Virus record (IMG/VR): IMGVR_UViG_2617270990_000007
From: a virus
Lineage: Duplodnaviria; Heunggongvirae; Uroviricota; Caudoviricetes
Length of the DNA stretch: 32,803 bases
Direction: 5' to 3' (one strand)
The notes under the pieces were generated by a model. It worked only from the letters and a program-made list of their open reading frames with translations. It was not told the DNA's origin and made no database searches. Positions 1 to 32,803 of this stretch are shown here, in pieces (positions within the stretch are counted from its first letter, which is position 1; the number at the start of each line of letters is the position of its first letter). The position numbers were made by a program, and so were the translations under genes.

Positions 1-23
1 TGGAGAGTGTTTTATCTGTGAAC

Positions 24-914: not shown

Positions 915-1237
915 TTTTTCCAGAGGCGGTCGAACTCCGCCTTCGCAAAATAAGCGGAAGCCTGGCGAAGGATATCGTTACTGCGGCGCAGTTCACGATT
1001 TTCACGTTCCAGCTCTTTCAGACGCTGACGTTCAGCGCTGGTGAGCCCACCATCACCGCCCCCGGTATCCCGCTCATGCTGGCGAACCCAGACACGCAGA
1101 GTCTCCGGCGTACAGCCAATCTTTGGGGCAATGGAACAAATTGCCGCCCACTGTGAGTCATATTCATCCTGACTTTCCAGAACCATACGAATCGCCCGCT
1201 GACGGACTTCGGGGGAAAAACGAGTATTTTTAGTCAT
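911..1237 (-). CDS. IS3-family transposase OrfA (HTH DNA-binding, leucine-zipper region)
   Basis: 108-aa [25 protein letters not shown]…; an A6 run at the OrfA/OrfB overlap is consistent with programmed -1 frameshifting. Confidence 0.9.
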
Positions 1238-1562
1238 CCTGTTTACCTCTTTCTCAGGGAGTTTAGTCTCCAGGATTTCCGGGGCGGTTCACTATGCTGT
1301 GTGCGTTGAAAATGGAAATCTTGTTAGTCATTACCGCATTATGTGTTTGCGAAAGAATGGGGCTGCGTTAATTAATTTTGTGGATGGTCGAGTGACAGAC
1401 GGATTTATCTTGCGCGAAGGTGAGTTTGTCACTTCATTACAGGCACTGAAAGAGATCGGAATAAAAGCAGGCTTTTCAGCTTTTGCAGAAGAATAAACTC
1501 ATCTACAATCTTGCGCGGGGCTGAACTCCCGCTGAGTAACACCGTGCCACCGGAGAAAACCG

Positions 1563-2894: not shown

Positions 2895-3287
2895 TTGTGG
2901 AGTAAGTTGATGCGTGATATTCAGATGGTTCTTGAGCGTTGGGGGGCATGGGCGGCTAATAATCATGAAGATGTGACCTGGTCGTCCATTGCCGCCGGTT
3001 TTAAGGGATTAATTCCTTCAAAAGTAAGATCTCGTCCGCAATGCTGTGACGATGACGCGATGATCATTTGTGAATGTATGGCTCGCCTGAAAAAAAACAA
3101 CAGCGATTTACATGATTTATTGGTGGACTATTATGTCGGCGGCATGACTTTTATGGCGCTTGCACGTAAGCATGGGCGATCTGATTGTTGGGTTGGCAGG
3201 ATGCTCCAGAAAGCTGAGGGCGTAGTGGAGGGCATGCTGATGGTGTTGGATCTCCGATTGGAGATGGATGCTGATTGTTCGAAATAA
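2895..3287 (+). CDS. late-gene antiterminator Q (phage 82 / QuuD type)
   Basis: Translation …[39 protein letters not shown]…[11 protein letters not shown]…[10 protein letters not shown]… matches the ~127-aa Q antiterminator family; true start probably the internal ATG giving MRDIQMV. Confidence 0.7.
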
Positions 3288-3299
3288 TTAAAGGAAAAG

Positions 3300-3328
3300 T
3301 TGCTGTCTGATTTTCATTAGTCTAACAT
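3300..3328 (+). promoter_or_regulatory. candidate pR'-like late promoter (TTGCTG - 17 nt - TAACAT)
   Basis: -35/-10-like hexamers with 17-nt spacing, 13 bp downstream of the Q stop; position matches lambdoid pR'. Confidence 0.35.
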
Positions 3329-3377
3329 TTTAAATGTTGGAATCGCAACGTAGTTATTATCATATAACAGCTTGTTT

Positions 3378-3405
3378 CCTGATTTAGCCAGCCTCCCCAA
3401 AGGCT
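3378..3405 (+). terminator. intrinsic terminator, candidate tR' (target of Q antitermination)
   Basis: Stem CCAGCC / GGCTGG with 8-nt loop followed by a T7 run, about 50 nt downstream of the putative pR'. Confidence 0.55.
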
Positions 3406-3442
3406 GGTTTTTTTCTAATAAGTATCATTTCGGGTGGGGATT

Positions 3443-3967
3443 TTATTGTTTAACCCATAATAGTTCATTGACATTGAATCCCAACTTTTGAGCGGTACGC
3501 ACATAGTCTGCTTTTACATTATCTGGAATAGTTTGGGTCCTTGCCAGAATCCATAGGTATTCTCTGTTCGGACCACTGACAAGAGCATACTTATACTCAT
3601 CATCCAGTTTGATTACATTATAGCCACCATAGAAGGGGCCAAAAAACGAAACTTTCAACGCTGCAGTTTTAGTATCTCCAGTAAAGTATGCTTTACCTTC
3701 GCTCTCGCTCCATTTGTTTTTCGTTGGATCGTATCCACGGTTAAGTACGCGAATCCCTCCGTCGTTCCGTTTTTCATAAGTAGCGCTGACCTGTTCCAGA
3801 CCACGTTCGAACCAGTTCTCGAGGCGAGCTATTTCATACCATTTTCCGAGGTAGCGGTTGGCGTCAAAATTTGTAATCGGCTGCACACCTTTAGGTGGTG
3901 TCGGGGCCTTACATGCTATAAGAGTGAAAGAGAGTGCAATGCCAGTCAACACAGGCCATAACTTCAT
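3443..3967 (-). CDS. lipocalin-family outer-membrane lipoprotein (Blc-like)
   Basis: 174 aa; lipoprotein signal with lipobox LIAC; strong similarity by eye to E. coli Blc (…NFDANRYLGKWYEIARL…FERGLE…KVSFFGPFYGGYNVI…YLWILART…). Confidence 0.8.
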   Translation of the reverse strand: MKLWPVLTGIALSFTLIACKAPTPPKGVQPITNFDANRYLGKWYEIARLENWFERGLEQVSATYEKRNDGGIRVLNRGYDPTKNKWSESEGKAYFTGDTKTAALKVSFFGPFYGGYNVIKLDDEYKYALVSGPNREYLWILARTQTIPDNVKADYVRTAQKLGFNVNELLWVKQ

Positions 3968-4159
3968 AATAAATCCTGTACTTTTGATAGTTGAGAGTAA
4001 GTATGAAAGATAGATGAGTACGACCGATCACTTAAAGAACTTTCCTACTATATTAGGAATAGTCAATAACAGAAAAATTGTCAGTGATGAAGCCAGAAAG
4101 GCAATTTAGTCCGTGCACTACAAAGTTTATGTGTTAATGAATTAGTCAAGGGGGAGGAA

Positions 4160-5119
4160 ATGATAAAAAAACCTGTGATTGGGATCAGCGGTTGTTTGGG
4201 CGGTTCTGCTGTTCGTTTTGATGGTGGTCACAAAAGAGATGACTTTTTAATGGACAAATTAGTGGAATGGGTAACATTCAGACCAGTATGTCCGGAAATG
4301 GCTATAGGGCTGCCAGTTCCGCGTCCTGCTCTACGACTTGTGCGCTCGAAGCAAGGAAATATACGGATGTGTTTCAGCCACGACCAGAATGAGGATGTGA
4401 CAGAGAGAATGACAGAGTTTAGTCGTTCTTATATGGACAAATTAAAGGATGTATCGGGGTTTGTGGTTTGTGCTAAATCTCCCAGCTGTGGCATGGAGCG
4501 CGTGCGTGTCTATGATGAAAATGGTAATCGAGGTCGTAAAGATGGAGTGGGACTATTTACGAGCACTTTGATGGAAAAGTTTTCCTGGCTACCGGTTGAA
4601 GAGGATGGGCGATTACATGATCCAGTGCTTCGTGAGAATTTTATTGAAAGAGTTTTTGCTTTGCATGAGCTCAATCACCTTTACAAGGAGAAATTATCAA
4701 GAAGAGAGTTATTAGCTTTTCATAGTCGTTATAAGCTTCAGTTGTTGGCGCATAGCCAGGCAGGCTATAAAGATATGGGACCATTTGTGGCTGCAATACA
4801 CGAGTGGGCGGACCTTGAATCATACTTTGAGGTGTATCGTGATAATCTGATGGCGATTCTCAGAAAACCAGCATCACGTAAAAATCACACGAATGTGCTG
4901 ATGCATATACAGGGGTATTTTAGTAATTACTTAAGTACACGCCAGCGTAAAGAGTTGAGCGAGGTTATACTTAACTATCGCTTTGGCACATTGCCTCTTC
5001 TTGCGCCGTTGACTCTGCTGAAGCATTATCTGGGTGAGTATCCTAATGATTACTTGCTTACACAGAATTACTTCGATCCCTATCCGGAAGAACTGGCTCT
5101 AAGACTGATGGTGAATTAA
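4160..5119 (+). CDS. DUF523/DUF1722 fusion protein (TudS/YbgA-like)
   Basis: 319-aa ORF with SD GGGGGAGG upstream; N-terminal Cys-containing region and C-terminal YbgA-like region recognised from memory only. Confidence 0.55.
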   Translation: MIKKPVIGISGCLGGSAVRFDGGHKRDDFLMDKLVEWVTFRPVCPEMAIGLPVPRPALRLVRSKQGNIRMCFSHDQNEDVTERMTEFSRSYMDKLKDVSGFVVCAKSPSCGMERVRVYDENGNRGRKDGVGLFTSTLMEKFSWLPVEEDGRLHDPVLRENFIERVFALHELNHLYKEKLSRRELLAFHSRYKLQLLAHSQAGYKDMGPFVAAIHEWADLESYFEVYRDNLMAILRKPASRKNHTNVLMHIQGYFSNYLSTRQRKELSEVILNYRFGTLPLLAPLTLLKHYLGEYPNDYLLTQNYFDPYPEELALRLMVN

Positions 5120-5516
5120 CTGTATGCGATATCATCTGAAAGTGATGAGTTCCTGTATGCAGGATATTTACAATCGTAAAAACTACGCTATGATGCTCAT
5201 AGTGTCAGTTTTTATAAAAATCCTGTTCACGCTAAAGAAAACATTGAGATGCAATTTAATGTTGGTAAACATACCAGCCCCAAAAGATTTTATTCAATCT
5301 GTTTTTATATGAAGATATTTCAAGTGAATATAAAGAGCATATAATATTATTATTGCACGCAGCTATTATAATATAACAGATTAGTTTAATGATTTGTTTT
5401 TTGTGAGTTAAACACATGGTTTTATAGTTGTGATGCAATGAGATTTTCCTTATTGTTGAACTGGCGAATATTGATTTTCCACCTATACTTACCTGGTGTA
5501 ACCCCAATGATATCAG

Positions 5517-6239
5517 GTGGATAATATGCCATACATATGTTCTATCATTTTGGTGTTGAACTCGTTTGGTGTCCGAATTGGTAAAGAAGATATTTTGTTT
5601 AAAAAAGGAAATGCTGTCCTCATTGAATACAATTTAAAAGATCTTTTTTCGTCAAATACAGATCATCTAATGATCGTAGATATTGAGGAGAAAACAGTTA
5701 ATGATTTCTTTAAAAACTACACACTCTCACCTTTTTCTGTAAGAAGGTTTTATCCGTCATACTTGATAGTAGAATGTGAAGATTTTTCATTGTTAAGGAA
5801 CTTGGTTGCATGCTTGAATTGTGATAGCAAAACCGTGGATGTAGTTAGAAATCAAATATCACTTGCATGTCTTGCTGTCTTATCTTCAGAGAAAATAGTG
5901 CAAAGTTTTTTGTTCGGAAGTCTTAATAGCTTAGGTTGTAAAGTTAAGGCTATTATTCACTCGGATATCTCAGCGTCATGGAGACTTTGTGATATATCTT
6001 CAAGATTATATATGAGCGAGAGTTTGTTAAAAAGAAAATTAAAAGACGAAGGATTATCGTTTAGTAAATTAATTCTTGAAGAACGAATGATGATGGCGCA
6101 AAGATTATTGATCTACAGTAACCATACTGTCGGCAAGGTGGCGGGAATATGCGGGTATGACAATGCATCATATTTTGTAAGTGTTTTTAGAGGATATTTT
6201 GGTGTGCCTCCGCACCAATATTTATCAAGATTTTCTTAG
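5517..6239 (+). CDS. AraC/XylS-family transcriptional regulator
   Basis: 240 aa, very AT-rich; C-terminal AraC-type HTH signature (…ASYFVSVFRGYFGVPPHQY…). Confidence 0.75.
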   Translation: MDNMPYICSIILVLNSFGVRIGKEDILFKKGNAVLIEYNLKDLFSSNTDHLMIVDIEEKTVNDFFKNYTLSPFSVRRFYPSYLIVECEDFSLLRNLVACLNCDSKTVDVVRNQISLACLAVLSSEKIVQSFLFGSLNSLGCKVKAIIHSDISASWRLCDISSRLYMSESLLKRKLKDEGLSFSKLILEERMMMAQRLLIYSNHTVGKVAGICGYDNASYFVSVFRGYFGVPPHQYLSRFS

Positions 6240-6429
6240 AAGATATGATGTGATGGCATTTTATAAAGTTATTTTTTGAAGTGTAAGATTATACGATATT
6301 TTTAGCTACGCCAGAATAATTGCTGGCGTTTTTCTTTTTGAATAGATGTTCGGGCCTTACGCTAATGTAACTTCTTTCCTTCTTCGAACCAAACCGTGTA
6401 CACCATCCGTTATCTGCGGAGGTGAGGCT

Positions 6430-6645
6430 ATGAAATCCATGGATAAGTTAACAACGGGCATCGCCTACAGCACCTCTGCAGGCAGTGCTGGCTACTGGTT
6501 TTTACAGTTGCTCGATAAAGTCACGCCCTCACAGTGGGCGGCAATAGGTGTATTGGGTAGTCTGGTATTTGGCATGCTGACGTATCTGACAAACCTTTAT
6601 TTCAAGATTAAAGAAGACAGGCGTAAGGTTGCGAGAAGAGAGTAA
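6430..6645 (+). CDS. lambdoid holin (EssD/S-like)
   Basis: 71 aa from ATG at 6430 ([31 protein letters not shown]…), SD GGAGGTGAGG upstream; closely resembles DLP12 EssD. Confidence 0.8.
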
Positions 6646-6649
6646 TCCA

Positions 6650-7201
6650 ATGACTCAAGACTATGAACTGGTTGTGAAAGGAGTTCGCAATTTTGAGAAT
6701 AAAGTGGCGGTAACTGTAGCCTTACGGGACAAAAAACACTTTGACGGTGAAATTTTTGACCTGGACATCTCGCTGGACCGTGTTGAAGGTGCCGCGCTGG
6801 AGTTTTATGAGGCAGCAGCCAGAAGGAGCATCAGACAGGTCTTCCTGGATGTTGCTGCCGGGTTATGTGAAGGGGATGAGCAGTCGCCGGAAAAGCGCCC
6901 CATAATTTTAGAGGCGCAGAATGTGTGGATAACCTACAAAGGAAAGCTACCGGGAAGAATTACTGGTTCTCTGAAGACGCCACCGACGGCATTGCGGTCA
7001 GAAAAAGATGATATTGAATCGCCCATTGAAAAACTGGAGGGCAGCGTCGCTGATCTGAATAAAAAATTGTCGGTGCTGATTCCTTCTGAAGATGAAAAAA
7101 AACGCCGCGATGAGCAGTTTGCGGCGTTTTACGATTATTGCATTGAAGTTACTCGCAGGAATTTTGTGAAGATTTTTGAGGAGGGTAAATCTCTTCAGTA
7201 A
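6650..7201 (+). CDS. hypothetical protein (183 aa) within the lysis cassette
   Basis: ORF between holin and endolysin; start taken at the ATG giving MTQDYELVVKG; no recognised motif. Confidence 0.45.
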   Translation: MTQDYELVVKGVRNFENKVAVTVALRDKKHFDGEIFDLDISLDRVEGAALEFYEAAARRSIRQVFLDVAAGLCEGDEQSPEKRPIILEAQNVWITYKGKLPGRITGSLKTPPTALRSEKDDIESPIEKLEGSVADLNKKLSVLIPSEDEKKRRDEQFAAFYDYCIEVTRRNFVKIFEEGKSLQ

Positions 7202-7409
7202 GCTTATTGGCGGACGCTGCAATTAATTCAGGAAGGTCCGCAAGGTCATCTGTCAGTGGATATGATGAAAAATCGGCGGCAGTTCTGTTAAGAAGCGCTT
7301 TAACTAATTCCTTTTCCTTCTCCGGCAACAAGTTGATTAGAGCTACGACTGCTTGCCTGAGTGCGATTAAATCAGCAAAAGTTTGTTTAGGTAGATTTGT
7401 GTAATCCAT
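7149..7409 (-). CDS. hypothetical small protein (86 aa), antisense to the lysis cassette
   Basis: ORF with AGAGG SD-like sequence about 6 nt upstream of its ATG; overlaps the 3' end of the preceding gene. Confidence 0.3.
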   Translation of the reverse strand: MDYTNLPKQTFADLIALRQAVVALINLLPEKEKELVKALLNRTAADFSSYPLTDDLADLPELIAASANKLTEEIYPPQKSSQNSCE

Positions 7410-7522
7410 AGTCGCCTCTGTGTTTATCAGATTGACATCCTCCTCCCGCCAGTGCCCATCACTGGTGAGGTAAGATTTAACATATCCGGGGATTTGAAGC
7501 CGATAAATCCTGATAAATATCC

Positions 7523-8550
<1,028 letters not shown>

Positions 8551-8910
8551 ATTAATATTAAATCGGATTATTTTTAGCGCTGAATGTGAAATTTAAATAA
8601 AAAGGACTCTTCCATGAGTCAAAATCCTTGAAATCTTAAGGGTAAGATAAAAGGTCATTAGACAGAATGACACGTTTTATTAATAAATAAAGCTATTGTT
8701 TCATTCGTGTGTTTTTCTTTACAAAAGTAATCCTTGCTATGGTTGGTTAATCATGCGTTAATGGTGTTCTGGTTTGTTACAAAATTATCTGAAGCAGTCA
8801 TTGTTATAATTTTATTATTTGTACCTCTTGAGATTTCCTTGTTGGTTTTTCTCTCTGATATTTTTTTTCGGACCATTCTGCCCAAGGGCTAACTTCTTCA
8901 AAAGGTAATA

Positions 8911-9126
8911 ATGATGTCTAACAAAATGACTGGTTTAGTGAAATGGTTTAACCCTGAAAAAGGTTTTGGTTTCATCACGCCGAAAGATGGTAGCAAAGAT
9001 GTGTTTGTCCATTTCTCAGCTATTCAGAGCAACGATTTCAAAACGTTAACTGAGAATCAGGAAGTCGAATTTGGTATTGAGAACGGACCTAAAGGCCCCG
9101 CGGCTGTTCATGTTGTGGCACTTTGA
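8911..9126 (+). CDS. cold-shock protein (CspA family, CspB/CspI-like)
   Basis: [13 protein letters not shown]…KGFGFI…[10 protein letters not shown]… canonical cold-shock domain; long AT-rich 5' leader upstream. Confidence 0.9.
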
Positions 9127-9325
9127 GGTAGAAAATATTACAAACCATATTCACTTTAGATGCCCGTGTTGCCATGGTTCTCAGTATAGAACATCATCTT
9201 TTGATGTTTCTGACAGGAATCCTTTCGGGGCAAAATGTATCTTTTGTAAATCAATGATGATTACATTTGATAATATTTCACAATACTTAAATGTTAGCCG
9301 TCTATCGTTAGATTTAAGAAAGTGA
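9109..9325 (+). CDS. hypothetical Cys-rich small protein (about 72 aa)
   Basis: ORF from ATG at 9109 overlapping the csp stop; CPCC…CIFC spacing suggests a zinc-ribbon. Confidence 0.3.
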
Positions 9326-9369
9326 AAATGAAGGCTCCATCGGGGGCGTTGGTAGCCCTTTGATATACG

Positions 9370-9458
9370 GGCTTTCAGCGGTGTAATGCGGGTTTGAGCA
9401 CCACATAAAGCCACTGAAAGCCGCTATAAATCACCCGAGTGTGGACACTGTGTGGACG
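9370..9458. other. candidate attL of the P2-like prophage (core region plus Int arm-type direct repeats)
   Basis: Two direct repeats GTGTGGAC (9439..9446, 9450..9457) at the int 3' end resemble the P2 Int arm-site consensus as I recall it; 11-bp inverted repeat GGCTTTCAGCG / CACTGAAAGCC (9370..9380, 9412..9422) just outside int. Confidence 0.4.
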
Positions 9459-10444
9459 TTTTCGGGTTCAATGCCGCCCTTTAACGGATTGAGTGTTACG
9501 GCATCTTGTAAATACTCTGGCGCGAAGTGCGCGTAGACCATTGTCTGCTCTATGCGCGCGTGACCGAGTATCCTTTGTAGCGTGATAATGCTTCCTCCGT
9601 TAATCATGAAATGCGTAGCAAAACTGTGCCGTAGAGCATGGGTTGCCTGTCCTGCTGGCAGGTCGGGCTTTACCTCTTTCAGTACCTGCCGGAACAACGT
9701 GTAATCGGCATTCGGGAACAGGAAGCCGCGCTTCACGCTGGTGAGTATTTCACATACTTCTGCCGATACTGGCACCGTTCGGGGTTTGTTCGTTTTGGTT
9801 TTAACAAACGTCACCCGATTATGGATGATGTGCTCGGCTTTCAGTTTTGCCGCTTCACCCCACCTAGCGCCCGTGCTTAGGCAAAGAACCGCTATTTTTT
9901 TATTGTCACCATCGAGCCGCGAGAAAAGGGCGGTAATTTCCTCGTTGGTTAAATAGCCCGTTTCGGGCTTCTCCTCTTTGAGTCGTTTACGTCCTCTTAT
10001 CGGGTGTTCGCCATGGTATAGCTCGGCCTCAATCAGAGCGGTAAACATTCCGCTGATGCATGTCAGATCCCGATTGATGGTAGATGGCTTAACGCCTTCA
10101 CCTCGCCGAGCTGCAACATACTGGCTAATTACCGTCTTTGTAATCTGAAACGCGCACGGATCACCGGTTATCGCCGCGAATTTCTCGACCTTTCCCCGAT
10201 TGTACTTTCCCCATTCCTCGTGCTTTGCCTTGAGTTCCCACCAGATTTGAATCAATTCGGAAAGTTGCCTTTTATCGGTCGGCTTCGCTAACCAATCCTT
10301 GTTGTGGTGGTTGTATTGCGTGTGCTTCTCAAAGGCCACTGCCTCACTTTTCTTGTCAAACTTCCTGCGGATGCGTTTTCCGTTGCGTCCGCTAGGTCTA
10401 ATGTCCACTTCATAACGACCATCATCGAGTTTCTTAATTGTCAT
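9431..10444 (-). CDS. int: P2-like tyrosine integrase
   Basis: 337 aa; C-terminal catalytic region with R…HALRHSFATH…LGH…Y motif typical of tyrosine recombinases; adjacent to C and cox in P2 order. Confidence 0.9.
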   Translation of the reverse strand: MTIKKLDDGRYEVDIRPSGRNGKRIRRKFDKKSEAVAFEKHTQYNHHNKDWLAKPTDKRQLSELIQIWWELKAKHEEWGKYNRGKVEKFAAITGDPCAFQITKTVISQYVAARRGEGVKPSTINRDLTCISGMFTALIEAELYHGEHPIRGRKRLKEEKPETGYLTNEEITALFSRLDGDNKKIAVLCLSTGARWGEAAKLKAEHIIHNRVTFVKTKTNKPRTVPVSAEVCEILTSVKRGFLFPNADYTLFRQVLKEVKPDLPAGQATHALRHSFATHFMINGGSIITLQRILGHARIEQTMVYAHFAPEYLQDAVTLNPLKGGIEPENVHTVSTLG

Positions 10445-10589
10445 AAGACCCCCGGACGAATGGCGATAAGTTGCTTTTTCTTTGCTGCTGTTACTTTGGC
10501 TTTGCGCGTATCTCCAGCAAATTTGTTGTATTTGTCATACTTAGCAACAAGTAAACAAATTTTGTAATAAATATACGCACGGTGAATAG

Positions 10590-10889
10590 TTAACCAGTCT
10601 TTTGGTCTGAGTGCTGCGATGTTGTTACATCTTGCCCAAAGTGTGCGAGTGCCGGTGCAATCTGACCGGCTTCAGGAGCAATTTGATCGGTCATAAACCA
10701 CAGGGTGTATTTACTAAATCTGGGGTGCTGTAGCATTTTCATTATGGCTTCTACGCCGGGACTTTTAACTCCAGATTCGTAGCCCCCCAACGTGCTATAG
10801 GCAATGCCCGTTAACTCGCTGAATTGCCTCTTGTTTAACCTTTCTGATTCACGGATGAGTTTTATCTTTTCAAATATCGGGGTTGACAT
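10590..10889 (-). CDS. C: P2-type immunity repressor C
   Basis: 99 aa; …KYTLWFMTDQIAPEAGQIAPALAHFGQ… matches P2 C from memory; divergent from cox. Confidence 0.85.
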   Translation of the reverse strand: MSTPIFEKIKLIRESERLNKRQFSELTGIAYSTLGGYESGVKSPGVEAIMKMLQHPRFSKYTLWFMTDQIAPEAGQIAPALAHFGQDVTTSQHSDQKTG

Positions 10890-10949
10890 AGTTACTCCTA
10901 TCTAAGAATATTGACTCGAAAGGGTGTGTTTAACCCCTTTCTGGTTATT

Positions 10950-10984
10950 CATTCAGAGCAATTAAAGCCCATTAAGAGCAATTA
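10950..10984. promoter_or_regulatory. candidate C-repressor operator in the Pc/Pe switch region
   Basis: Direct repeats CATTCAGAGCAATTA and CATTAAGAGCAATTA, 20 bp centre to centre, in the C-cox intergenic region. Confidence 0.5.
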
Positions 10985-11009
10985 GTTGCACGATAGGAGA
11001 ATGTAACAG

Positions 11010-11285
11010 ATGAACAGACAGCTTGTAAGTGCAACTGACGCGGTTCCTTACCAGGAGTTTGCAAAACTCATCGGTAAAACACCGGCAGCCGTGAAGGGAA
11101 TGATCGAAAAAGGGAAGTTGCCCGTTATTGAAATGACCGATCCGCAATCCACGTCTGGGCGTGCGGGAGAATACTGGGTATATCTTCCGGCATGGAACAA
11201 CGGCATGAAACTAGCATATGAAAGCCGTCCGAAGGAAATCAGAGAGGGGTGGTTGATGTGGTTAGGATTGGGCGATCGTTCATAA
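11010..11285 (+). CDS. cox: Cox (excisionase / early-promoter regulator)
   Basis: 91 aa; …VPYQEFAKLIGKT…GKLPVIEMTDPQS…GRAGEYWVYLPAWNNGMKLAYESRPKEIREGWLMWLGLG… matches P2 Cox. Confidence 0.85.
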   Translation: MNRQLVSATDAVPYQEFAKLIGKTPAAVKGMIEKGKLPVIEMTDPQSTSGRAGEYWVYLPAWNNGMKLAYESRPKEIREGWLMWLGLGDRS

Positions 11286-11289
11286 CTAC

Positions 11290-11484
11290 ATGGAGTTTGC
11301 GATGCTTATCCAAATCAACAGCAAAACAGCAATTTATCGCGGCTTCACGATCGTGAAGTTGCCGCGCAAAAAGCCGTATTCACGGCAGCGCTACCAAATC
11401 ACCAAAGGCGGAAATTATCTGGGGCTGGACTTCGGTCTGTCTCAGGCCCGTCAGACGATTGATCAGCTTCATCGGGGGAAATAA
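11290..11484 (+). CDS. hypothetical early protein (64 aa)
   Basis: ORF immediately after cox; stop overlaps the next start (ATGA). Confidence 0.4.
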   Translation: MEFAMLIQINSKTAIYRGFTIVKLPRKKPYSRQRYQITKGGNYLGLDFGLSQARQTIDQLHRGK

Positions 11485-11765
11485 TGACTACTTCAACCGC
11501 AGCTATTCTGAACGCTCGCCAGAGCGTCAATGCTTCCAGGCAGGACGGAACCCGCACGCCGTCCCGTAGTGGCTATGGTCCAAATCACCAACACAGCAAG
11601 TCGCGTAATGTTGTTCAGGGAATGGCACTGTCTGATATAGCGAAAAATGGTTTTGAGGTGCGATGTAAGGAAACGGGCATTCAATTTTCTATTCTTCCGG
11701 GTGGCTCTATATGTGACACCTTCAGTATTGAATTAGAAAAATACTGGAATAGCGGCGCTCGCTAA
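11484..11765 (+). CDS. hypothetical early protein (93 aa)
   Basis: ORF translationally coupled to the preceding one; no motif recognised. Confidence 0.4.
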   Translation: MTTSTAAILNARQSVNASRQDGTRTPSRSGYGPNHQHSKSRNVVQGMALSDIAKNGFEVRCKETGIQFSILPGGSICDTFSIELEKYWNSGAR

Positions 11766-11845
11766 TTAATTAACTGCAATCTAAATCATTTTATTTACGG
11801 CGTTTTTACCGGGGCTTCGCTTTATCTTTTTTCAGGGGGTTGATT

Positions 11846-12013
11846 ATGACAATTCAAACAAATGAACGCGCGCACCTGCTTGGATTGTTACGTATCAAAT
11901 TAACCTTGCTGAAAAAAGAAAAACTGTCCACCAATGAAATTTATCGCAGCCTGGAAAACTGGATCGACAACAGAGAACAGGCCGCAGAAATCAAGGAGCA
12001 AAAAAGTGATTAA
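11846..12013 (+). CDS. small ORF (55 aa) overlapping the methyltransferase start
   Basis: ATG with G-rich SD 8 nt upstream; stop TAA overlaps the GTG start region of the methyltransferase; below the 60-aa cutoff of the ORF track. Confidence 0.3.
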   Translation: MTIQTNERAHLLGLLRIKLTLLKKEKLSTNEIYRSLENWIDNREQAAEIKEQKSD

Positions 12014-12998
12014 CTCCCCTCTGATCTGGGCTGGCGGCAAGTCTCGCGCGATGCCTCATGTACTGGATGCTCTGCCGCAGGGTGAATGCCTCGTTGAGCC
12101 TTTTGTGGGTAGTGGTAGCGTCTTTCTGAATACAGACTATAAAACCTATATTCTGTGTGATAGCAATGCAGCCCTAATTAATTTCTTCTCTATGGTTAAG
12201 CGCAACACAGAAGCGCTTTTAACTTATGCATCCGCCTTGTTTTTGACTGGTAATAATGAAGATGCATATTACATAAATCGTGATGACTTCAATATTTTTA
12301 ATCGCGAGTACGCAGGGCATAGAGAGCAATATACAAATGATGAATTAGTTAAATATGCAGCGCTATTTCTTTATTTGAATCGTCACTGCTACAACGGTGT
12401 TTACCGTGTTAATTTAAAGAATGAATTCAACGTTCCTTTTGGTTTTCGTAAGAAGCCAATTTTCCCTGTGGCTGAGATTCAGCATTTTGCAAAAAGGGCT
12501 TGGGACAAAGGGGCAATGTTCCTGCATGGTGATTTCAGAGAAACAATTCCTCTATCTATCGGGCATTCAGGCTGCGTGGTTTATTGCGATCCTCCATACC
12601 TGCCAGCCAGCGAGACTGCAAATTTTACTGCATACGGTAAGCCCTTTACTGATGAAGACCATCGCGCCCTGGTTGCGATGCTTTCACGCCTCTACAACCA
12701 GGCAAAAATACCCTCTGTTATTTCCGGCAGTGACACCCCGGAAACGCGCCAAATTTACTACCCGTTCACCCTTAACTCATTCGAAGTCCGGCGTTCTGTG
12801 GGAGCAAAAACACGCAATCTCGCGGGTGAGGTGATTGGTTCGCTGCTCGTCTGTGACGAGTGCGGGCAAGTAGGGCGTGGTTATTGCGCTACCTGTTGCC
12901 CTGCCGTTGCTGGCGATGGCTATGAATCTGGAAGCGATACCTTTTGCTGTCGCAACTGCGAGATCTGCGATTCATACACAGCAGCAGAGGACTTCTGA
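12006..12998 (+). CDS. dam: Dam-like N6-adenine DNA methyltransferase with Cys-rich C-terminal extension
   Basis: SPLIWAGGK (AdoMet-binding motif I) and DPPY (catalytic motif IV); GTG start with AAGGAG SD 6 nt upstream; C-terminal ~55 aa carry ten Cys (CDECG…CATCC…CCRNCEIC). Confidence 0.85.
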   Translation: MINSPLIWAGGKSRAMPHVLDALPQGECLVEPFVGSGSVFLNTDYKTYILCDSNAALINFFSMVKRNTEALLTYASALFLTGNNEDAYYINRDDFNIFNREYAGHREQYTNDELVKYAALFLYLNRHCYNGVYRVNLKNEFNVPFGFRKKPIFPVAEIQHFAKRAWDKGAMFLHGDFRETIPLSIGHSGCVVYCDPPYLPASETANFTAYGKPFTDEDHRALVAMLSRLYNQAKIPSVISGSDTPETRQIYYPFTLNSFEVRRSVGAKTRNLAGEVIGSLLVCDECGQVGRGYCATCCPAVAGDGYESGSDTFCCRNCEICDSYTAAEDF

Positions 12999-13462
12999 TG
13001 ATTACTCCGTCCATTAACGATCACGTGAGCTATCTGCAAGGCGCGATAGCGGCGTTAGAAAAGGCAAAAGAGGCTGCATTAATTCACGCTGGTTATGCAG
13101 GTCTTTTGGCTGGCCCTGATGTTGAAAAGACGCTTCGTAAGTCTTTCGGGGCGGTTCTTGATCCCCTGATTAAGTCTCACAGTAGTGAGCTTGTTTTTCT
13201 TGGCTTTGATCCTGCCGCTGAAGCCGAGCCTGAAAGTCATACGGTTTGCGCCGTTGTTACGCGCGTTTTTTCACGCCGCTGCATTAGCAAAGGTTGCTGG
13301 CGCGTTGATTTCGAGGCGCACGATTTGTGGACTGATGAAGTTGTCCGGCATTCCCTCAACTATCCAACAGTCAAGGCCGCGCGGAAATGTAAACCAGGTA
13401 AACCGATGACATGGAAGACGACGCCTCCCCCGTTCGATTTTGATGATGGAGCGCCATTCTGA
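12998..13462 (+). CDS. hypothetical protein (154 aa)
   Basis: ATG overlaps the methyltransferase stop (TGATG); no motif recognised. Confidence 0.5.
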   Translation: MITPSINDHVSYLQGAIAALEKAKEAALIHAGYAGLLAGPDVEKTLRKSFGAVLDPLIKSHSSELVFLGFDPAAEAEPESHTVCAVVTRVFSRRCISKGCWRVDFEAHDLWTDEVVRHSLNYPTVKAARKCKPGKPMTWKTTPPPFDFDDGAPF

Positions 13463-13635
13463 TGAATACCGTTGAGGTTGTAGTGACAAAGGTGCTGGAT
13501 GTTCTCCCGCGCCGTAATTATTGGATCACTCGCGTTGAAGTTCTGGGCGAGGGTGGTTACAGCAATACAGACCTGATCACCTACTCTGAACGTGACGCAA
13601 GAGCGATACAGCCAGGCGACACGGTTTTCATCTGA
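13462..13635 (+). CDS. small ORF (57 aa)
   Basis: ATG overlaps the preceding stop; ends 9 nt before gene A; below the ORF-track cutoff. Confidence 0.35.
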   Translation: MNTVEVVVTKVLDVLPRRNYWITRVEVLGEGGYSNTDLITYSERDARAIQPGDTVFI

Positions 13636-13644
13636 GGCGGCTTA

Positions 13645-16224
13645 ATGTCTTCATTTCGCCGCTCTCATAGCATGACCAACATGCCGGGAGGCTCTATCGA
13701 GCCAGCCCGGTATGCTTACGCCTGGAATGAGCCAAAAGCCGCCATCTTCGTTGATAAGGCTCCCGCTGTTGATCTATATGAATTGGGTCAAGAGCAGGAG
13801 TTTTTCGCCTGGGTTGAAAATCCCCTCAAGCCGTTGCCTATCTTCATTCGCCGCCGCATTGCCTCTTACATAAATACCGTTCACGAGGATAAAGGGCGCC
13901 ATATCGCAAAACTGAAGTTGCGCGACATCGTTAAGCGCGAGCTTCCACACGTCAGAAACGTCACGAAACAATACGCTGTGCCAGAAGACAATGAGTGGAT
14001 CATTTTCTCTGAACTAAACCCACTGTTTCACTCGTTTGAAAATCTGCGTGAACTTGTCCGCCGCTTTAATAATCTGGCGGATTGCACGGATGAAGATATT
14101 GATTTGCTGGCTCAGGACATAGCCATTTATGCCAATGCTGTTTTGGCTGAAGTGAGCGAGGGTGCAAGTGTGTTCAACGATACTGAATACACCAAACGCA
14201 TGCTGCGTGAAGGCTCCAGGCTGATTGCGTATTTCAGGTTAGTGCCGCCCTGGGCGAAGAAGCGCCGGATGGCGCTTGATGAAGCGACAGCAGCAATACA
14301 AAAAACCCTTCATGATCGCTTTTGGTCACGCCTCCTGCGCAAGTACGCCCGCCGCTGGCGCGAGCATTTGCACATTGCCTATGGTGACGTGCGCCGCGAT
14401 GTTTCACCGTATTGCAGCAAACACCACGTTACGCAGTGGGATTCACGCCGTAAGCGTAGCCGCGCAATTATGAGCCGCCTTGAACTTGAAGATCAGGTAA
14501 CTGGTGAGCGCATTTCGCTGATAGAGCAGATTGATAAGAGCATTTCTAATCCTGAAAAGCGCCGTGTTGAGTTGATGACGCGCATTGGTGGATTTGAGAA
14601 GGTGGCAACGGAAAGCGGGTTTGCCGGCAGTTTCTTCACCCTGACCGCGCCGTCTAAATATCATGCCTTTACAGCGTTCGGGCATCGTAACCGCAAATGG
14701 AACGGAGCCAGCCCCCGCAAGACACAAAACTACCTTAATCGCGTCTGGCAACTGATCCGCGCGGAGCTTGCGCGCCGTGAGATTTCTGTTTTTGGCCTTC
14801 GTGTTGCAGAGTCTCACCATGATGGTACTCCGCATTGGCATGGCCTTCTGTTCACAGCCCCAGAGCATACCGGCGAATTGCTGGAAGTGATGGAAGACTA
14901 CGCCACGCGTGAAGATGCTGATGAACTCACCGGCAAGAATGGCAAACAGCCCCGCTTTGAACTTAAGCCGATAGATCCGGCTTTGGGGAGCGCTACTGGA
15001 TATGTCGTTAAGTACATATCTAAAAACATCGACGGTTATGCACTGGATGGTGAAAGCGACGACGAAAGCGGACGCCCACTGAAGGAGACAGCAAAACACG
15101 CTACTGCCTGGGCTTCATGCTGGGGCATTCGTCAGTTTCAGTTTCTGGGTGGCGCGCCGGTGTCCGTCTGGCGTGAGTTACGCCGCCTGAAGAATCAGGA
15201 AATGGCAGATCGAATCAGTCCGGTTTTCGGTGAGTTACACCGCGCCGCCCATGCCGGGAACTGGCAGGACTACATCACCTTGCAGGGTGGTCCGTTCGTG
15301 ACACGGAATAGGCTTGTGTTGCGCGCCTGGTATCAATATCGGGATGAGCCGAGCAGTTACGGCGAGTTTCAGAGGGTTATTAAAGGGGTGGTCATGCCAG
15401 CATCGACCGTTCCTCCGGTTGAAACCCGCCTCCATTCTTATCGCATTGTCAAAAAGAAGCCAAAAGCAGACGACGCCGCCGATCGAGGTTTTGACCTTAA
15501 GGGCGCGCCCGCGCCCTCTTGGACTCGTGTCAATAACTGTACTGAGTACAAAAAACATACAAATCAAGGGGCGGTAAATCCACCGCCTGAAGATCCAGAA
15601 CAATATGAAATTGGTCAAATGAGCCGAGAGCAGAAAAAACGGCTTAATGAGAGCATCAGAAATTACAAACCAAAACAGCAAAAATCACCTGCTGATGTGT
15701 TTGAGTCGCTTGCCAATGCTATTGCCGCTTCAGATTGCGATAGCGCAGATCAGGAGCGCGCTGAAAATTACATGAAAGTGGCGGCGGCTATCCGCGATGA
15801 ATCAGCAACCCGGCGGAGCAGTGTTGTGGAGGCCACACCAATGACTGCTCACCTTCGCTATCAGCTTTCCTCTTGGGGAATTAAGTCCAAGCCTGATATT
15901 GATGCCCTTCGTCGCGGGGCTTTGCTTTCTTTTGATGATCGACATGTTTATCTGAAGGATGGCTATCTGGTAGAAAAGACCAAAGCAATTTACTGTAGGG
16001 CTAGAGATTGTAATGCGGAGTTAAATCAGGATGATATAACCTATGGCGATGAAAAGCTCTGCTTGGCTTGTACTATGAAGCTGAAGGGGGTAGAAGTAGT
16101 CGAACAGCGCCGCGATGAAGTTAAGCAGAGAGTTAAAGCGGAAAGGAAGCGGGAGAATGATGTACTCCTTGAAAGATTAAGGGTTGCGCTCATTAATGGG
16201 GGGAAGCGTGGGCAAGTACTTTGA
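13645..16224 (+). CDS. A: P2-family replication initiation protein A (rolling-circle endonuclease)
   Basis: 859 aa; central block …FFTLTAPSKYH…HHDGTPHWHGLLF…GYVVKYISKNIDG… matches the P2 gpA family (conserved Tyr/His motifs). Confidence 0.9.
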   Translation: MSSFRRSHSMTNMPGGSIEPARYAYAWNEPKAAIFVDKAPAVDLYELGQEQEFFAWVENPLKPLPIFIRRRIASYINTVHEDKGRHIAKLKLRDIVKRELPHVRNVTKQYAVPEDNEWIIFSELNPLFHSFENLRELVRRFNNLADCTDEDIDLLAQDIAIYANAVLAEVSEGASVFNDTEYTKRMLREGSRLIAYFRLVPPWAKKRRMALDEATAAIQKTLHDRFWSRLLRKYARRWREHLHIAYGDVRRDVSPYCSKHHVTQWDSRRKRSRAIMSRLELEDQVTGERISLIEQIDKSISNPEKRRVELMTRIGGFEKVATESGFAGSFFTLTAPSKYHAFTAFGHRNRKWNGASPRKTQNYLNRVWQLIRAELARREISVFGLRVAESHHDGTPHWHGLLFTAPEHTGELLEVMEDYATREDADELTGKNGKQPRFELKPIDPALGSATGYVVKYISKNIDGYALDGESDDESGRPLKETAKHATAWASCWGIRQFQFLGGAPVSVWRELRRLKNQEMADRISPVFGELHRAAHAGNWQDYITLQGGPFVTRNRLVLRAWYQYRDEPSSYGEFQRVIKGVVMPASTVPPVETRLHSYRIVKKKPKADDAADRGFDLKGAPAPSWTRVNNCTEYKKHTNQGAVNPPPEDPEQYEIGQMSREQKKRLNESIRNYKPKQQKSPADVFESLANAIAASDCDSADQERAENYMKVAAAIRDESATRRSSVVEATPMTAHLRYQLSSWGIKSKPDIDALRRGALLSFDDRHVYLKDGYLVEKTKAIYCRARDCNAELNQDDITYGDEKLCLACTMKLKGVEVVEQRRDEVKQRVKAERKRENDVLLERLRVALINGGKRGQVL

Positions 16225-16495
16225 TGATTATGAACGGGAAGCTGACTATCAAAATTGGCTCTATTATCGAGAATCTTCGCATGAGGAACGTGAGTCAAAA
16301 AGTCATTATATCAGCCAGGATGAAGCTGAGGTGGAAAGTAGGCCTAAGTTGGTTGTGACGAAAATTGAATGGCCCGCAGTAGACGTGTTTCGTGATTTCC
16401 CTGAACACCAAGCCCTGATTACCGCTGCGGAAAAAAAATACTTTGAGTCAAAATCATGCGTTCGCGACACTGGGGATGACCAAGATGATGATTGA
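16196..16495 (+). CDS. small acidic protein (about 99 aa), P2 orf91 position
   Basis: ATG-started ORF overlapping the last ~29 nt of A; highly acidic, ends DDQDDD. Confidence 0.35.
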   Translation: MGGSVGKYFDDYEREADYQNWLYYRESSHEERESKSHYISQDEAEVESRPKLVVTKIEWPAVDVFRDFPEHQALITAAEKKYFESKSCVRDTGDDQDDD

Positions 16496-16516
16496 TAATG
16501 TGTTGTAAGGTATAAG

Positions 16517-16560
16517 TTTCAGAATAACAAGGTGTTGTAAAAAATCTTGTTATTCTGAAA
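16517..16560. repeat. perfect 15-bp inverted repeat between convergent genes (possible bidirectional terminator)
   Basis: TTTCAGAATAACAAG - 14 nt - CTTGTTATTCTGAAA, 22 nt after the plus-strand ORF stop and 5 nt after the minus-strand ORF stop; no clean U-tract on either side. Confidence 0.4.
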
Positions 16561-16564
16561 GTGG

Positions 16565-17716
16565 TTAGATAGGGGAATTCATGCTATCGGGTGCTGTTAC
16601 TACCAAATGAACTTTCGTTAATCTTTCAACCGCAAGTTTAGGCAGTACACTATCAAAAATAGCTAAATAATTTTCCAAAAGGGAATTAATATAATCAAGT
16701 TTGCCATGCTCAATCTCATACCAAGTGTCAGGGAGATACCTGACTATAATGCTTAATGTATATAATACGACTAAGTGTAATACAAAGGGATCTTGAGTTC
16801 CCCAAAATGGGACAATTACACTCGTTCCACAATAACCAGATTTGTGTGTCGTGACATAATCCCACCATAGCTCATCTTCAGGGTGATGGACTTCTCCTAC
16901 AAAATATGGTTGGTCATATTTTGTGAGGTTTTCTTCTGACTCAATTTCAATGTTTTTTATTCCAATGTTGTAAGAATTAAGCTCTTCTGCTGTTACATCG
17001 CTACCTTTGGGATAAATTGCGGCATATGTAAAACCTGAGAACTCTGGTTTAGGACGCGATAGGCCACCGAGTGACTGATTCCTTGATCTTAAGAGCATGT
17101 TTCTACTTGCTTGTCCAATTTGGAATGAAAGTGGATCTTCACCGAAAGTTTCTTGTAAAAGCGGTCTTAATTCTGGAATTCGTTTTAATAAATCAGTTAA
17201 AGAATAGGTGCGTGATGGGTCTAAATCTTCATCTTTTTTTGGACGTCTTTCTGTTGCATACTGTTTGATATCAATTCCTATATGCTTTGCATATGAATAA
17301 AAATGTCCACTTTTAAGACAGCCTATTTTTATATTGTCTGGGAATGTTTCATTTTCAACAGATTGTGTGAATAGCCCATGACCTGAAACCGTATGCTTTT
17401 GAACATTTTTTAAATCGTCGTTAGGATCCCCTGATGATATTTGTTCAGCTAAGCTTATCTGTAATAATGCATAATATCTGGATAAAATTTTTGAATTGAG
17501 TCCGCCATTTTCAGTCTCCCAATATCCGATTGCACTTCGTATTGCGGAGGACATTCCAATGGATTTTTTAATCAATACATCCTCTTGCAATGACGGATGA
17601 TTATTTTCTATTATTTTCTTACAGAGCTGCGCACTCATTAATCGTTTTAATCGTAACCAGATTGCACCGCTAACATCTGCTGCAACGAAACGTTCTATTG
17701 TTTTTTCTGATGACAT
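16565..17716 (-). CDS. hypothetical protein (383 aa), hotspot cargo gene 2
   Basis: Long AT-rich ORF with AAGGAA SD 5-6 nt upstream of ATG; no domain recognised by eye. Confidence 0.6.
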   Translation of the reverse strand: MSSEKTIERFVAADVSGAIWLRLKRLMSAQLCKKIIENNHPSLQEDVLIKKSIGMSSAIRSAIGYWETENGGLNSKILSRYYALLQISLAEQISSGDPNDDLKNVQKHTVSGHGLFTQSVENETFPDNIKIGCLKSGHFYSYAKHIGIDIKQYATERRPKKDEDLDPSRTYSLTDLLKRIPELRPLLQETFGEDPLSFQIGQASRNMLLRSRNQSLGGLSRPKPEFSGFTYAAIYPKGSDVTAEELNSYNIGIKNIEIESEENLTKYDQPYFVGEVHHPEDELWWDYVTTHKSGYCGTSVIVPFWGTQDPFVLHLVVLYTLSIIVRYLPDTWYEIEHGKLDYINSLLENYLAIFDSVLPKLAVERLTKVHLVVTAPDSMNSPI

Positions 17717-17995
17717 CGCTGTTCCTTAGTTGACGTATTACAACTTTTCAAAGTTAACCATACTCTACAAAATTAGTGGTACTAAAGGGAGCATTTTTTG
17801 ATTGCCAGCAACTTCAAATCACATAGCGGGGAGCTACAATGTAGTGTGTCGCGGCTTGGTCCTTGCTAAGAATCCATGTATAACTGAGCGCCACGAAATT
17901 GTAATGCCCTTCAAAGACCGCCGGGATTGGCGGCTTTTTAGAGTTTACTTCTAGTTTTATTGCTTCAAAATAGAGATAAAAGATAATATGGCTTA

Positions 17996-19345
17996 TCAGT
18001 TAATATCAAAGCCTTCGATCTTCTCATACATCATTTCAAACCATTTGACTCGTTGTCCAGGTATTACAGCCATGAATGCGTACTCAGTGAGCATATCAGA
18101 GGAACGTAGTTCTTCATCGGTGGCTAAGTGGTATTTTAACAATATTGCAATATAATAAATCTCAGAAACATCGACAAGGTTTACAGGAATTGATAATCGT
18201 TTAAATATCTCATCTTCTGTCAGTTTTTTGTTTAATATTTCCATGAGTAAGGATTGGTTGAATATTTTCAAGAAAGCAACTAGTGCGATGGCAACATGAA
18301 ATATTTCATGTCGGTAGGAATTTACTTCGCTGGGGTCGTTCATTATTGCGAATGTTGAATAGCAACGCTCAGCCTCTCGCAGTGAACAGTTATTCATTTC
18401 TAGAAGATACGCGAGGGTTTTTACGAGAGAACCATTCCGAATCAGTATGTCATTCCCTTGATCTAACGACAGGAGATATTGTGTTAACGTTGAACGTTCA
18501 TAGCCTGCTCGGCAGCCTACTGAGAGCATACTTTTTTTAGGAAGAGTAAACCAATAATGAATAAATTTATTTAAATATAATCTTGTATTTATGCTCCCAT
18601 ATCTACACTCTATACTTTTTTCAAACTGCTCACGGTTAACTACTAGTAAGAAAACAAAACCTTCCACTGAAAATATATGTTTTATTTTCTCTAGCAAGTC
18701 AAGGGAAAAATCAGGTCGCGACCTGTCTAGCTCATCAATTATAAATATTATTTTTTTCCCACACTCAGTGTGAATCTTGGTCAGCAATGCTCTAAATTGC
18801 TCAATTGTTGCTAACTCACTCTCGCTCGTTTTTATTTTTTCTTCAATGTACTCTTCAATAGGTGATGTGAGAGAGTCACTGATGGCATCACTTGCTTTCT
18901 CCAGTGCGTTACCTGAGACTAATCCACTTGTGAAAGTGCTTACGGCAAATTTTGCACCATTAAGTGCGAATGACGCGCCTAGTTTTTTACCAATGGATAA
19001 TAACTCTTTCCCGAGGTTTTTAAGCTTTCCATCTTCTTTTTTTATGAGTGAATAAATTTTTGATGTTAAGGCTACAAATGGGTCTGATTGATAGTCATTT
19101 TCAAAAGCGTCAAAGTAAATAACGTCAAAGTTGTCAGCATGGTTTTTATTTATTTCTGATGACATCATTTTTACAAATGAGGTTTTTCCGTTACCCCATT
19201 CATCATTGAGCGCAAGTACAAGACTTTTATCTGGGGCATTTGTTGCTACCCGCATGATGATGTCATGAAGTTTTTTACGTCCAAATATGTCATCTGCTGT
19301 ACTAAAACCATCTGAGAACGCTTTAACAGGAGCGGTCAATCGCAT
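17996..19345 (-). CDS. KAP-family P-loop NTPase (449 aa), hotspot cargo gene 1
   Basis: Walker A with the KAP-typical Trp (NDEWGNGKTSF), following F-D-A-F…D-P-F segment, Walker B IIFIIDELDRSRPDF; GAGGAA SD upstream of ATG; AT-rich. Confidence 0.7.
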   Translation of the reverse strand: MRLTAPVKAFSDGFSTADDIFGRKKLHDIIMRVATNAPDKSLVLALNDEWGNGKTSFVKMMSSEINKNHADNFDVIYFDAFENDYQSDPFVALTSKIYSLIKKEDGKLKNLGKELLSIGKKLGASFALNGAKFAVSTFTSGLVSGNALEKASDAISDSLTSPIEEYIEEKIKTSESELATIEQFRALLTKIHTECGKKIIFIIDELDRSRPDFSLDLLEKIKHIFSVEGFVFLLVVNREQFEKSIECRYGSINTRLYLNKFIHYWFTLPKKSMLSVGCRAGYERSTLTQYLLSLDQGNDILIRNGSLVKTLAYLLEMNNCSLREAERCYSTFAIMNDPSEVNSYRHEIFHVAIALVAFLKIFNQSLLMEILNKKLTEDEIFKRLSIPVNLVDVSEIYYIAILLKYHLATDEELRSSDMLTEYAFMAVIPGQRVKWFEMMYEKIEGFDIN

Positions 19346-19548
19346 AATTTCTTTTCCTCATTTATTTAATGATTTAACGGCATCATAACTAGGCATGAGG
19401 TTACTTTTCAATAGAGTAAAGTGATGCACGATTGTGCGCAAAAATGCACAATAAAATCAGCCCCTTTTTGGGATTATCGAGGCAGGATCTGCGGGGGCTG
19501 GCGGTGGATCTGCAAGTGCACGAAAACACGAGTGTTCGTTGCGCGCAG

Positions 19549-19567
19549 GTGACGGGGGGAAAGCCCG
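19549..19567. other. candidate cos site of the P2-like prophage
   Basis: GGTGACGGGGGGAAAGCCC matches about 15 of 19 positions of the P2 cohesive end as I recall it, in the GC-rich gap between the hotspot and portal gene Q. Confidence 0.4.
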
Positions 19568-19750
19568 CGCGGCGGGGGGGTAGGGGGATGCCTCAAATAT
19601 AGGGAAATTGGCGCAATTCTGGCGCGCTGCTGCGTTCTGTGTGTTGTGTGCGGGTAATGGCGTGTTTAGATGATGGGGCGCTTAGAATGGCGCTGGCGCG
19701 CCGTGTGTTGATGTGATGCTAAGAGCGCCGCCGGACTGGCGGCGGTGTGG

Positions 19751-31498: not shown

Positions 31499-31540
31499 TG
31501 AACCGCCCCGGGTTTCCTGGAGAGTGTTTTATCTGTGAAC

Positions 31541-32754: not shown

Positions 32755-32803
32755 CCTGTTTACCTCTTTCTCAGGGAGTTTAGTCTCCAGGATTTCCGGG
32801 GCG

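Follow-up and report, generated by a model that had tools for sequence, protein, structure and literature searches.

The DNA analysed here (the window, 32,803 nucleotides of IMG/VR virus record IMGVR_UViG_2617270990_000007) holds parts of two prophages that meet at a short junction, with a copy of the same insertion sequence at each end. It carries the following features:

1-1291, minus strand: IS1203/IS629 copy of the IS3 family, truncated at the window start; 99.9% identity to annotated IS1203, with ORFs of 108 and 296 amino acids
1292-9338, plus strand: Qin-like lambdoid prophage late region, from Qin identity, REL606 annotation, and Pfam
2910-3287: Q antiterminator, from gene and Pfam calls
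About 6430-6645: holin, from gene and Pfam calls
7523-8056: lysozyme, from gene and Pfam calls
8053-8550: Rz-like DUF2514 gene, from gene and Pfam calls
8756-9172: cspA-type thermoregulator RNA over the cspI leader (Rfam RF01766, 109.8 bits)
8914-9126, plus strand: cspI cold-shock gene (Pfam CSD; annotated as cspI in REL606)
9137-9325, plus strand: ymcF/ynfQ small cold-shock gene, the final lambdoid gene ahead of the junction (Pfam YmcF-like, 1.5e-32; gene call on contig L003)
9326-9352: attL core, from a four-way alignment of attL, attR, attB, and deduced attP, in the same register as the P2 core
9339-31498: P2-type prophage body, from int to the first 115 codons of tail-fibre gene H (Pfam and gene calls)
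9355-9435: predicted Cox-binding region, two opposed sets of cox-box-like sites, collinear with the P2 Cox site (AF063097, 24399-24472)
9439-9458: P' arm with two arm-type sites for Int in direct orientation, reaching over the 3' end of int, from the match to the P2 P' arm, conservation, and consensus
9431-10444, minus strand: int, a P2-type tyrosine integrase of 337 amino acids (Pfam Int_N, 4.4e-25; Phage_integrase, 3.1e-20)
10590-10889, minus strand: C-type immunity repressor with a helix-turn-helix (Pfam HTH_3), positioned as P2 gene C
11010-11285, plus strand: cox, excision directionality factor and repressor of Pc (Pfam Phage_Cox, 1e-42)
13645-16224: replication gene A
16565-19345, minus strand: YaaC-like and KAP NTPase cargo genes (gene and Pfam calls)
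31499-32803, minus strand: IS1203/IS629 copy within tail-fibre gene H

The left part of the window belongs to a lambdoid prophage. Its late region contains DUF968, the Q antiterminator, a lipocalin, a 2-thiouracil desulfurase-like gene, an AraC regulator, the holin, ydfR, lysozyme, rzpQ, cspI, and ymcF. An initial annotation, made from the sequence alone, had recognized lambdoid late genes (Q, holin, endolysin, Rz/Rz1, csp) up to position 9325, and gene calls, Pfam matches, and the REL606 annotation agree; REL606 names the equivalent stretch essD, rrrQ, rzpQ, cspI, and ynfQ/ymcF. Between the Q antiterminator and the holin (3443-6239) lies non-phage cargo: the lipocalin, the 2-thiouracil desulfurase/DUF1722 gene, and the AraC-type regulator. 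Two related contigs, L003 and L005, carry an additional 768-bp insertion at window positions 6382-6390, with IS1 genes called there in L005.

Positions 8600-9350 share 99.5% identity with E. coli Qin, and the identity ends at about 9350, inside a hairpin that follows cspI-ymcF. The cspI-ymcF region, matching up to window position 9350, is present and uninterrupted in 2,126 of 5,426 complete E. coli genomes. In REL606, this empty site reads through GAAGGCTCCTTCGGGAGCTTTTTTGC into ynfN and gnsB without a break. A simple terminator scan calls the REL606 hairpin terminator-like; at the attL of the window, the same scan finds no terminator. (Speculatively, cold-induced cspI transcription may run antisense into int, the downstream terminator being lost at attL.)

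The right part of the window is a P2-type prophage, which also holds the morphogenetic block from portal gene Q through baseplate gene I. The P2-like int that the initial annotation began at 9431 lies on the minus strand, so that its stop codon occupies 9431-9433. Its product shares 80.7% protein identity with P2 Int over 336 residues. Residues 1-58, the N-terminal arm-binding part, are almost unchanged from P2, and the differences concentrate in residues 60-160. In P2-type integrases generally, the arm-binding and catalytic domains are conserved and the core-binding domain is variable (Nilsson et al., PMC3448106). The divergence of the core-binding region from that of P2 therefore points to another host target.

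Several other genes of this prophage deserve mention. The slot between gene A and portal gene Q, which holds tin and old in P2, contains a YaaC-like gene (383 amino acids) and a KAP-family P-loop NTPase gene (449 amino acids); the latter matches the PADLOC candidate defence family PDC-S20 (1.2e-74), and the two are probably an anti-phage cargo pair. Separating the replication region from the YaaC-like gene is a 44-nucleotide imperfect palindrome (86%; 16517-16560), probably a terminator that works in both directions. The early region encodes a Dam-like D12-class orphan DNA methyltransferase (11934-12998; PADLOC oMTase, 4.7e-77).

The prophage body is 99.9% identical to intact relatives up to position 31502. 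There, identity to the intact H gene of contigs L093 to L097 ends, and the intact relatives read on; the IS end, TGAACCGCCCCGGG, begins at 31499. The P2-type prophage is thus defective, because IS1203/IS629 interrupts its tail-fibre gene. Window positions 1-1286 and 31518-32803 are 100% identical, the window end falls 5 nucleotides short of the right IS end, and each IS copy contains an ALIL frameshift pseudoknot (at 840-956 in the left copy). The left copy adjoins the rem/hok side of Qin. Overall, the window looks like a complete contig of a draft assembly whose ends are set by a collapsed IS repeat.

The intact relatives have features of their own. In L094 to L097, an Acyl_transf_3 gene (345 amino acids; 12322-13359) follows the tail-fibre assembly gene and possibly serves surface-polysaccharide acetylation. 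The U-T-E-FII-FI tail block of the same contigs (13459-19160) lies on the strand opposite to D and ogr, an arrangement unlike the P2 gene order. In L093, a truncated sheath gene is followed by Mu-type transposase genes (18975-20615), which would add a third level of nesting, a Mu-like element within a P2-like one.

The junction between the two prophages has the anatomy of a P2 attachment site. In the GenBank annotation of P2, the ogr terminator and the P arm are followed by the IHF site and a 27-bp core; next come the stretch protected by Cox and the P' arm, the latter overlapping the stop codon of int. Window positions 9368-9460 align base for base with the annotated Cox site and P' arm of the P2 record AF063097 (P' arm: ACTGTGGACACTGTGTGGACAC in P2, AGTGTGGACACTGTGTGGACGT in the window), and the core segment differs from that of P2 while keeping the same register. 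Tandem repeats had been noted at the int 3' end as integrase arm sites. Two copies of GTGTGGAC are indeed present (9439-9446 and 9450-9457), with a period of 11 bp, within the last nine int codons, where they encode VHTVST; they are collinear with the annotated P' arm of P2. The arm sites are TGTGGACA (9440-9447) and TGTGGACG (9451-9458), which fit the consensus tgTGGaCa of P2-type phages (Nilsson et al., PMC3448106). The pattern TGTGGAC-N4-TGTGGAC (9440-9446, 9451-9457) occurs just once in the window, with 0.14 chance matches expected when up to two mismatches are allowed. Moreover, the arm repeats are conserved in P2-like relatives, both in the annotated P' arm of P2 and in 79 of 80 related viral contigs, where paired GTCCAC-N5-GTCCAC marks the 3' end of int. 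The decisive evidence that these sites are more than chance is the homology to the Cox site and P' arm of P2.

Between the core and the P' arm lies an inverted repeat that the initial annotation described as 11 bp long. A repeat is present, but its length differs: the arms GGCTTTCAGCGG (9370-9381) and CCACTGAAAGCC (9411-9422) pair perfectly over 9 bp, or over 12 bp with one mismatch. The sole perfect inverted pair of 11-mers consists of 9413-9423 and 9835-9845, and the latter arm is internal to int. At the attP of P2, six cox-boxes with consensus TTAAA(G/C)NC(A/C) and a spacing of 10-11 bp face two ways (Berntsson et al., PMC3936717). In the window, positions 9350-9440 contain eight cox-box-like sites with at most two mismatches, four on each strand, against an expectation of 2.4. 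Among the best-matching sites are the two arms of the repeat (TGAAAGCCC, one mismatch; TGAAAGCCG, two mismatches). Because of this, and because two-way boxes are published for the P2 attP, opposed cox-boxes, predicted from the consensus, are the ordinary explanation of the inverted repeat.

Could the repeat instead be primarily an RNA hairpin, a stabilizer or processing site within the int transcript's 3' untranslated region, and not, or not only, Cox-binding DNA? Read in the sense of int, the repeat forms a 12-bp stem (z = -5.3). Across 24 diverse relatives, 99% of the cells are paired; six GC-to-AU double changes fall in one pair, and every one-sided change in the remaining pairs gives a G-U wobble, which would be an A-C mismatch on the opposite strand. 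True covariation is nevertheless limited to that one pair, and pair 28-60 is broken by one transition and two other changes. By the analysts' own count, about six of seven transitions are wobble-compatible, which is non-significant. The arms, moreover, are the two best cox-box matches, in a setting where opposed cox-boxes are published for P2 (PMC3936717), and an Rfam search of the window places no family at the junction. With one truly covarying pair and three broken cells, the RNA evidence is suggestive and no more, and a primary role as RNA seems doubtful. It is unlikely, too, that throughout the P2-type phages the conserved 12-bp repeat is, in addition, a selected hairpin at the 3' ends of the int transcripts that serves as an element of post-transcriptional control or stability. 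If it were, an RNA-level switch would be overlaid on the DNA-level excision switch. In this secondary-site lysogen, the native terminator after the hairpin is lost; the cspI-ymcF operon has lost its terminator as well, and its transcription may read antisense into int.

If the junction is an attL, a matching attR should exist. The ogr-side junction was found by an exact-pattern search with the ogr sequence, on contig L098, which is tied to the window through a common IMG genome identifier and through contig L013, 100% identical to window positions 3434-16444, rather than by a physical join to the attR. The identity of L013 indicates that the source of the window is one isolate genome. L098 reads ogr, terminator, P arm, IHF-like site, and AAAAAAAAGCCCC joined to TTCGGGAGC, and then continues into ynfN and gnsB; the gene order and sequence of Qin are thus found on both flanks of the insertion. 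Its P-arm side is collinear with P2: ATGTGGTCGGTAAGTGGACATGACC, then GAAATAAATCCTTTTATTTCA, then TTAAAAAAAAGCCCC joined to TTCGGGAGCTTTTTTGC. The P arm (L098 positions 2177-2197) consists of TGTGGTCG and AGTGGACA. The putative IHF site between P arm and core, GAAATAAATCCTTTTATTTCA, is identical to the annotated IHF segment of P2, and is assigned by that homology.

Four-way alignment of attL, attR, attB, and the deduced attP then gives the exchange itself. The attP reads TTAAAAAAAAGCCCC joined to ATCGGGGGCGTTGG, and the attB in the Qin hairpin reads ATGAAGGCTCC joined to TTCGGGAGCTTTTTT. In attL, the attB-derived half ends with GGCTCC (9333-9338), and the attP-derived half, ATCGGGGGCGTTGG, begins at A9339. 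The attB-type bases end with T9336 and the attP-type bases start with A9339, which places the crossover in the common CC at 9337-9338. The exchange is reciprocal and precise to the base. Searches of the phage collection (as DNA and as protein), IMG/VR (by Int and the P-arm pattern), and JGI metagenomes (by two patterns) yielded neither a free phage nor a circular form carrying this attP; the IMG/VR matches came from the window's own genome only.

The Qin hairpin is an imperfect partner for this phage. It matches the attP core at 15 of 21 bases, with six mismatches, whereas a Kluyvera-type terminator between yoaF and dgcP matches at all 21. On this ground the Qin site is classed as secondary. 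The evidence for the Kluyvera-type site comes from several directions. The identical Int protein occurs in many assemblies, mostly at the Qin junction (21 of about 24 contigs read); in two of the contigs, L006 and L009, int adjoins a GAF-GGDEF gene in a yeaR-yoaG-type neighbourhood. For the flank in these two, megablast finds nothing in E. coli, and a Kluyvera flank shares 78% identity with it. Exactly after GCCCCCGATGG, their attL parts from the window and reads GCCCCCGATGGGGCTTTTTTTT; their prophage is 99.92% identical to that of the window over 11.1 kb. Among species representatives, the nearest Int proteins come from Kluyvera sp. (98% and 90% identity), at a yoaF-dgcP-type site. NCBI names the exact Int E. 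coli, and its cluster mates at 90% identity are from Kluyvera cryocrescens, K. intermedia, and Pseudocitrobacter. A Shigella host, which the lack of this int in complete E. coli genomes and the numerous IS copies had suggested, was rejected on the strength of the NCBI name. (In the 90% identical relative from Kluyvera sp. STS39-E, contig L100, an in-frame stop interrupts the int at 3001-4011, and this prophage can therefore probably no longer leave its site.)

A native-type attR completes the comparison. Contig L170, found through the Ogr relative P0003 and assigned to this att type by its P arm and core sequence rather than by int, reads AAAAAAAAGCCCCATCGGGGG followed by AGATGGGGC beside a DUF333 (yoaF-like) gene, and gives the 21-bp common core. 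Two other Ogr relatives, P0002 and P0008, were ruled out as sources of a native-site attR, as they use another terminator site. Rfam searches at the native site returned sub-threshold chance matches only, with no known small RNA. Among complete E. coli genomes, no more than 19 nucleotides of the native core were found in any, and the exact int in none. One such 19-nucleotide match to the attP core, AAAAAAAAGCCCCATCGGG, lies inside wzy, the O-antigen polymerase gene of E. coli O13/O129/O135; no integration was seen there, and the match is coincidental.

More distant relatives have other targets of the same kind. Contigs L164, L165, L167, and L171, with Ogr proteins 80-89% identical, share a different core, CCCCCTCATGATGAGGGGGTTTTTTT, in a terminator hairpin about 100-130 nucleotides after the ogr stop codon. 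In L164 and L165 this hairpin lies upstream of a cation-efflux (fieF-like) gene; the flanking genes differ in L167, and L171 has a further pair of P2-type arms directly past the hairpin. Terminator hairpins appear to be the recurrent target class.

Together, these results make it very likely that positions 9326-9460 are the attL (B-O-P') of a P2-type myovirus, inserted by its Int into the Qin hairpin as a secondary site, the native one being the yoaF-dgcP terminator of Kluyvera-like bacteria. The central proposal of the initial annotation, that a temperate phage had integrated into the resident prophage of another, is thereby upheld by an attL, attR, and attB related through a reciprocal crossover, and it withstood both of the tests set to refute it, the search for an empty site and the conservation of the arm repeats, with two refinements suggested by the sequence: the Qin hairpin would be a secondary site, and the inverted repeat a pair of opposed cox-boxes. 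The best reading has a Kluyvera-type P2-like phage passing into a lineage of E. coli, where it integrated at the nearest hairpin it could use, the one in Qin. The stand-in was used because E. coli lacks the site used in Kluyvera. Counting against this explanation, a 15/21 match is not rare in a genome; by the analysts' estimate, tens of such sites occur by chance.

Would the phage instead be a specialist on lambdoid prophages, with the cspI-ymcF hairpin as its dedicated primary site, in the manner of satellites that target prophage late genes? Elements that target prophage genes are known (PMC10111431), and most contigs with the identical Int do carry the Qin junction, but these many identical junctions may descend from one integration in one E. 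coli lineage. A dedicated site also accords poorly with an attP core shared at 15 of 21 positions only and with an attL and attR unlike each other, when a Kluyvera-type site offers the whole 21-bp core and the closest Int relatives come from Kluyvera and Pseudocitrobacter. This alternative is therefore most improbable. Almost certainly wrong is the proposal that the junction did not arise by site-specific integration at all, and instead reflects a chimeric assembly, a rearrangement mediated by an IS, or a phage made mosaic by illegitimate recombination. Its appeal lies in the identical IS copies that bound the window and in the look of a draft-genome contig. Yet the junction is found in at least eight independent assemblies, two of them with contigs of 4.65 and 4.67 Mb; the breakpoint falls exactly at the position of the P2 attP core; no IS end is present there; and the exchange seen in attR is reciprocal and exact to the base.

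The proposed secondary-site integration suggests the following mechanism. A heterobivalent tyrosine integrase would insert the phage into the GC-rich terminator hairpin downstream of cspI-ymcF, within a Qin-like prophage of E. coli, by exchange between attP (TTAAAAAAAAGCCCC joined to ATCGGGGGCGTTGG) and the Qin hairpin (ATGAAGGCTCC joined to TTCGGGAGCTTTTTT) at the common CC, 9337-9338. The attL would then offer Int two arm sites and a core half-site, and offer Cox an array of boxes; the attR would offer the P arm and the IHF site. By analogy with P2, excision would need Int on the attL arm sites and the attR P arm, IHF in attR, and Cox filaments on the cox-boxes. What these proteins would bind, in what order strands would be exchanged, and whether the prophage could be excised today we infer from the att-site anatomy and P2 homology, both of which are observed. 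Because attL and attR differ in the bases that flank the CC, any overlap region of 6-8 bp holds at least one mismatch. In tyrosine recombinases, an overlap mismatch makes excision inefficient, and from this general knowledge, excision from the Qin site should be inefficient.

The system closely follows the Int/Cox/IHF module of P2. Shared are ogr, the terminator, a P arm of two repeats, the IHF site, core, cox-boxes, P' arm, int, C, and cox, along with the TGTGGAC arm consensus and a core that is again a GC-rich hairpin beside an A-run. The differences lie in the core (AAAAAATAAGCCCGTGTAAGGGAGATT in P2, AAAAAAAAGCCCCATCGGGGG here), the order of tail genes, and the cargo genes. The target of P2 is cyaR; secondary att sites of lambda and secondary loci of P2 are known. 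Integration at secondary sites in hosts that lack the native attB is also described for the Sa3int phages of S. aureus (PMC8649754). The likeness is a 15/21 site in a host without the native core, leaving attL and attR cores that differ; what differs is the stand-in, here a cold-shock operon's terminator hairpin within another prophage.

Superintegration and nesting within cryptic prophages are documented as well, in the size variation of Qin (PMC6379469) and in helper-embedded satellites (PMC10111431). As in those cases, one mobile element lies wholly within a resident prophage; unlike helper-embedded satellites, the element here is a full-size P2-type phage, and it occupies an intergenic terminator, not a late gene. 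The surrounding cspI-ymcF-ynfN-gnsB segment is that of the cryptic Qin prophage (99.5% identity, equal gene order on both insertion flanks), but is here split by about 33 kb of P2-type prophage and by IS1203/IS629. Nothing suggests a regulatory link between the P2-type phage and its lambdoid host prophage.

The locus is a clear example of a known process at base-level resolution, with no new mechanism. As a natural case of P2-type secondary-site integration it is fully resolved, with attL, attR, attB, and the native site all in hand. It also gives exact prophage borders for annotation, and cautions that one "prophage region" here in fact consists of two phages, one nested in the other, along with IS copies. 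With their six mismatches, attP and the Qin site provide a natural gauge of the divergence tolerated by P2-type integrases, which bears on their proposed use in genome engineering. Moreover, a cryptic prophage served as the landing site: the resident prophage gave a site where the native one was missing. Finally, a phage 99.9% identical in Kluyvera-like bacteria and in E. coli, and lysogenic in both, points to recent spread across genera.
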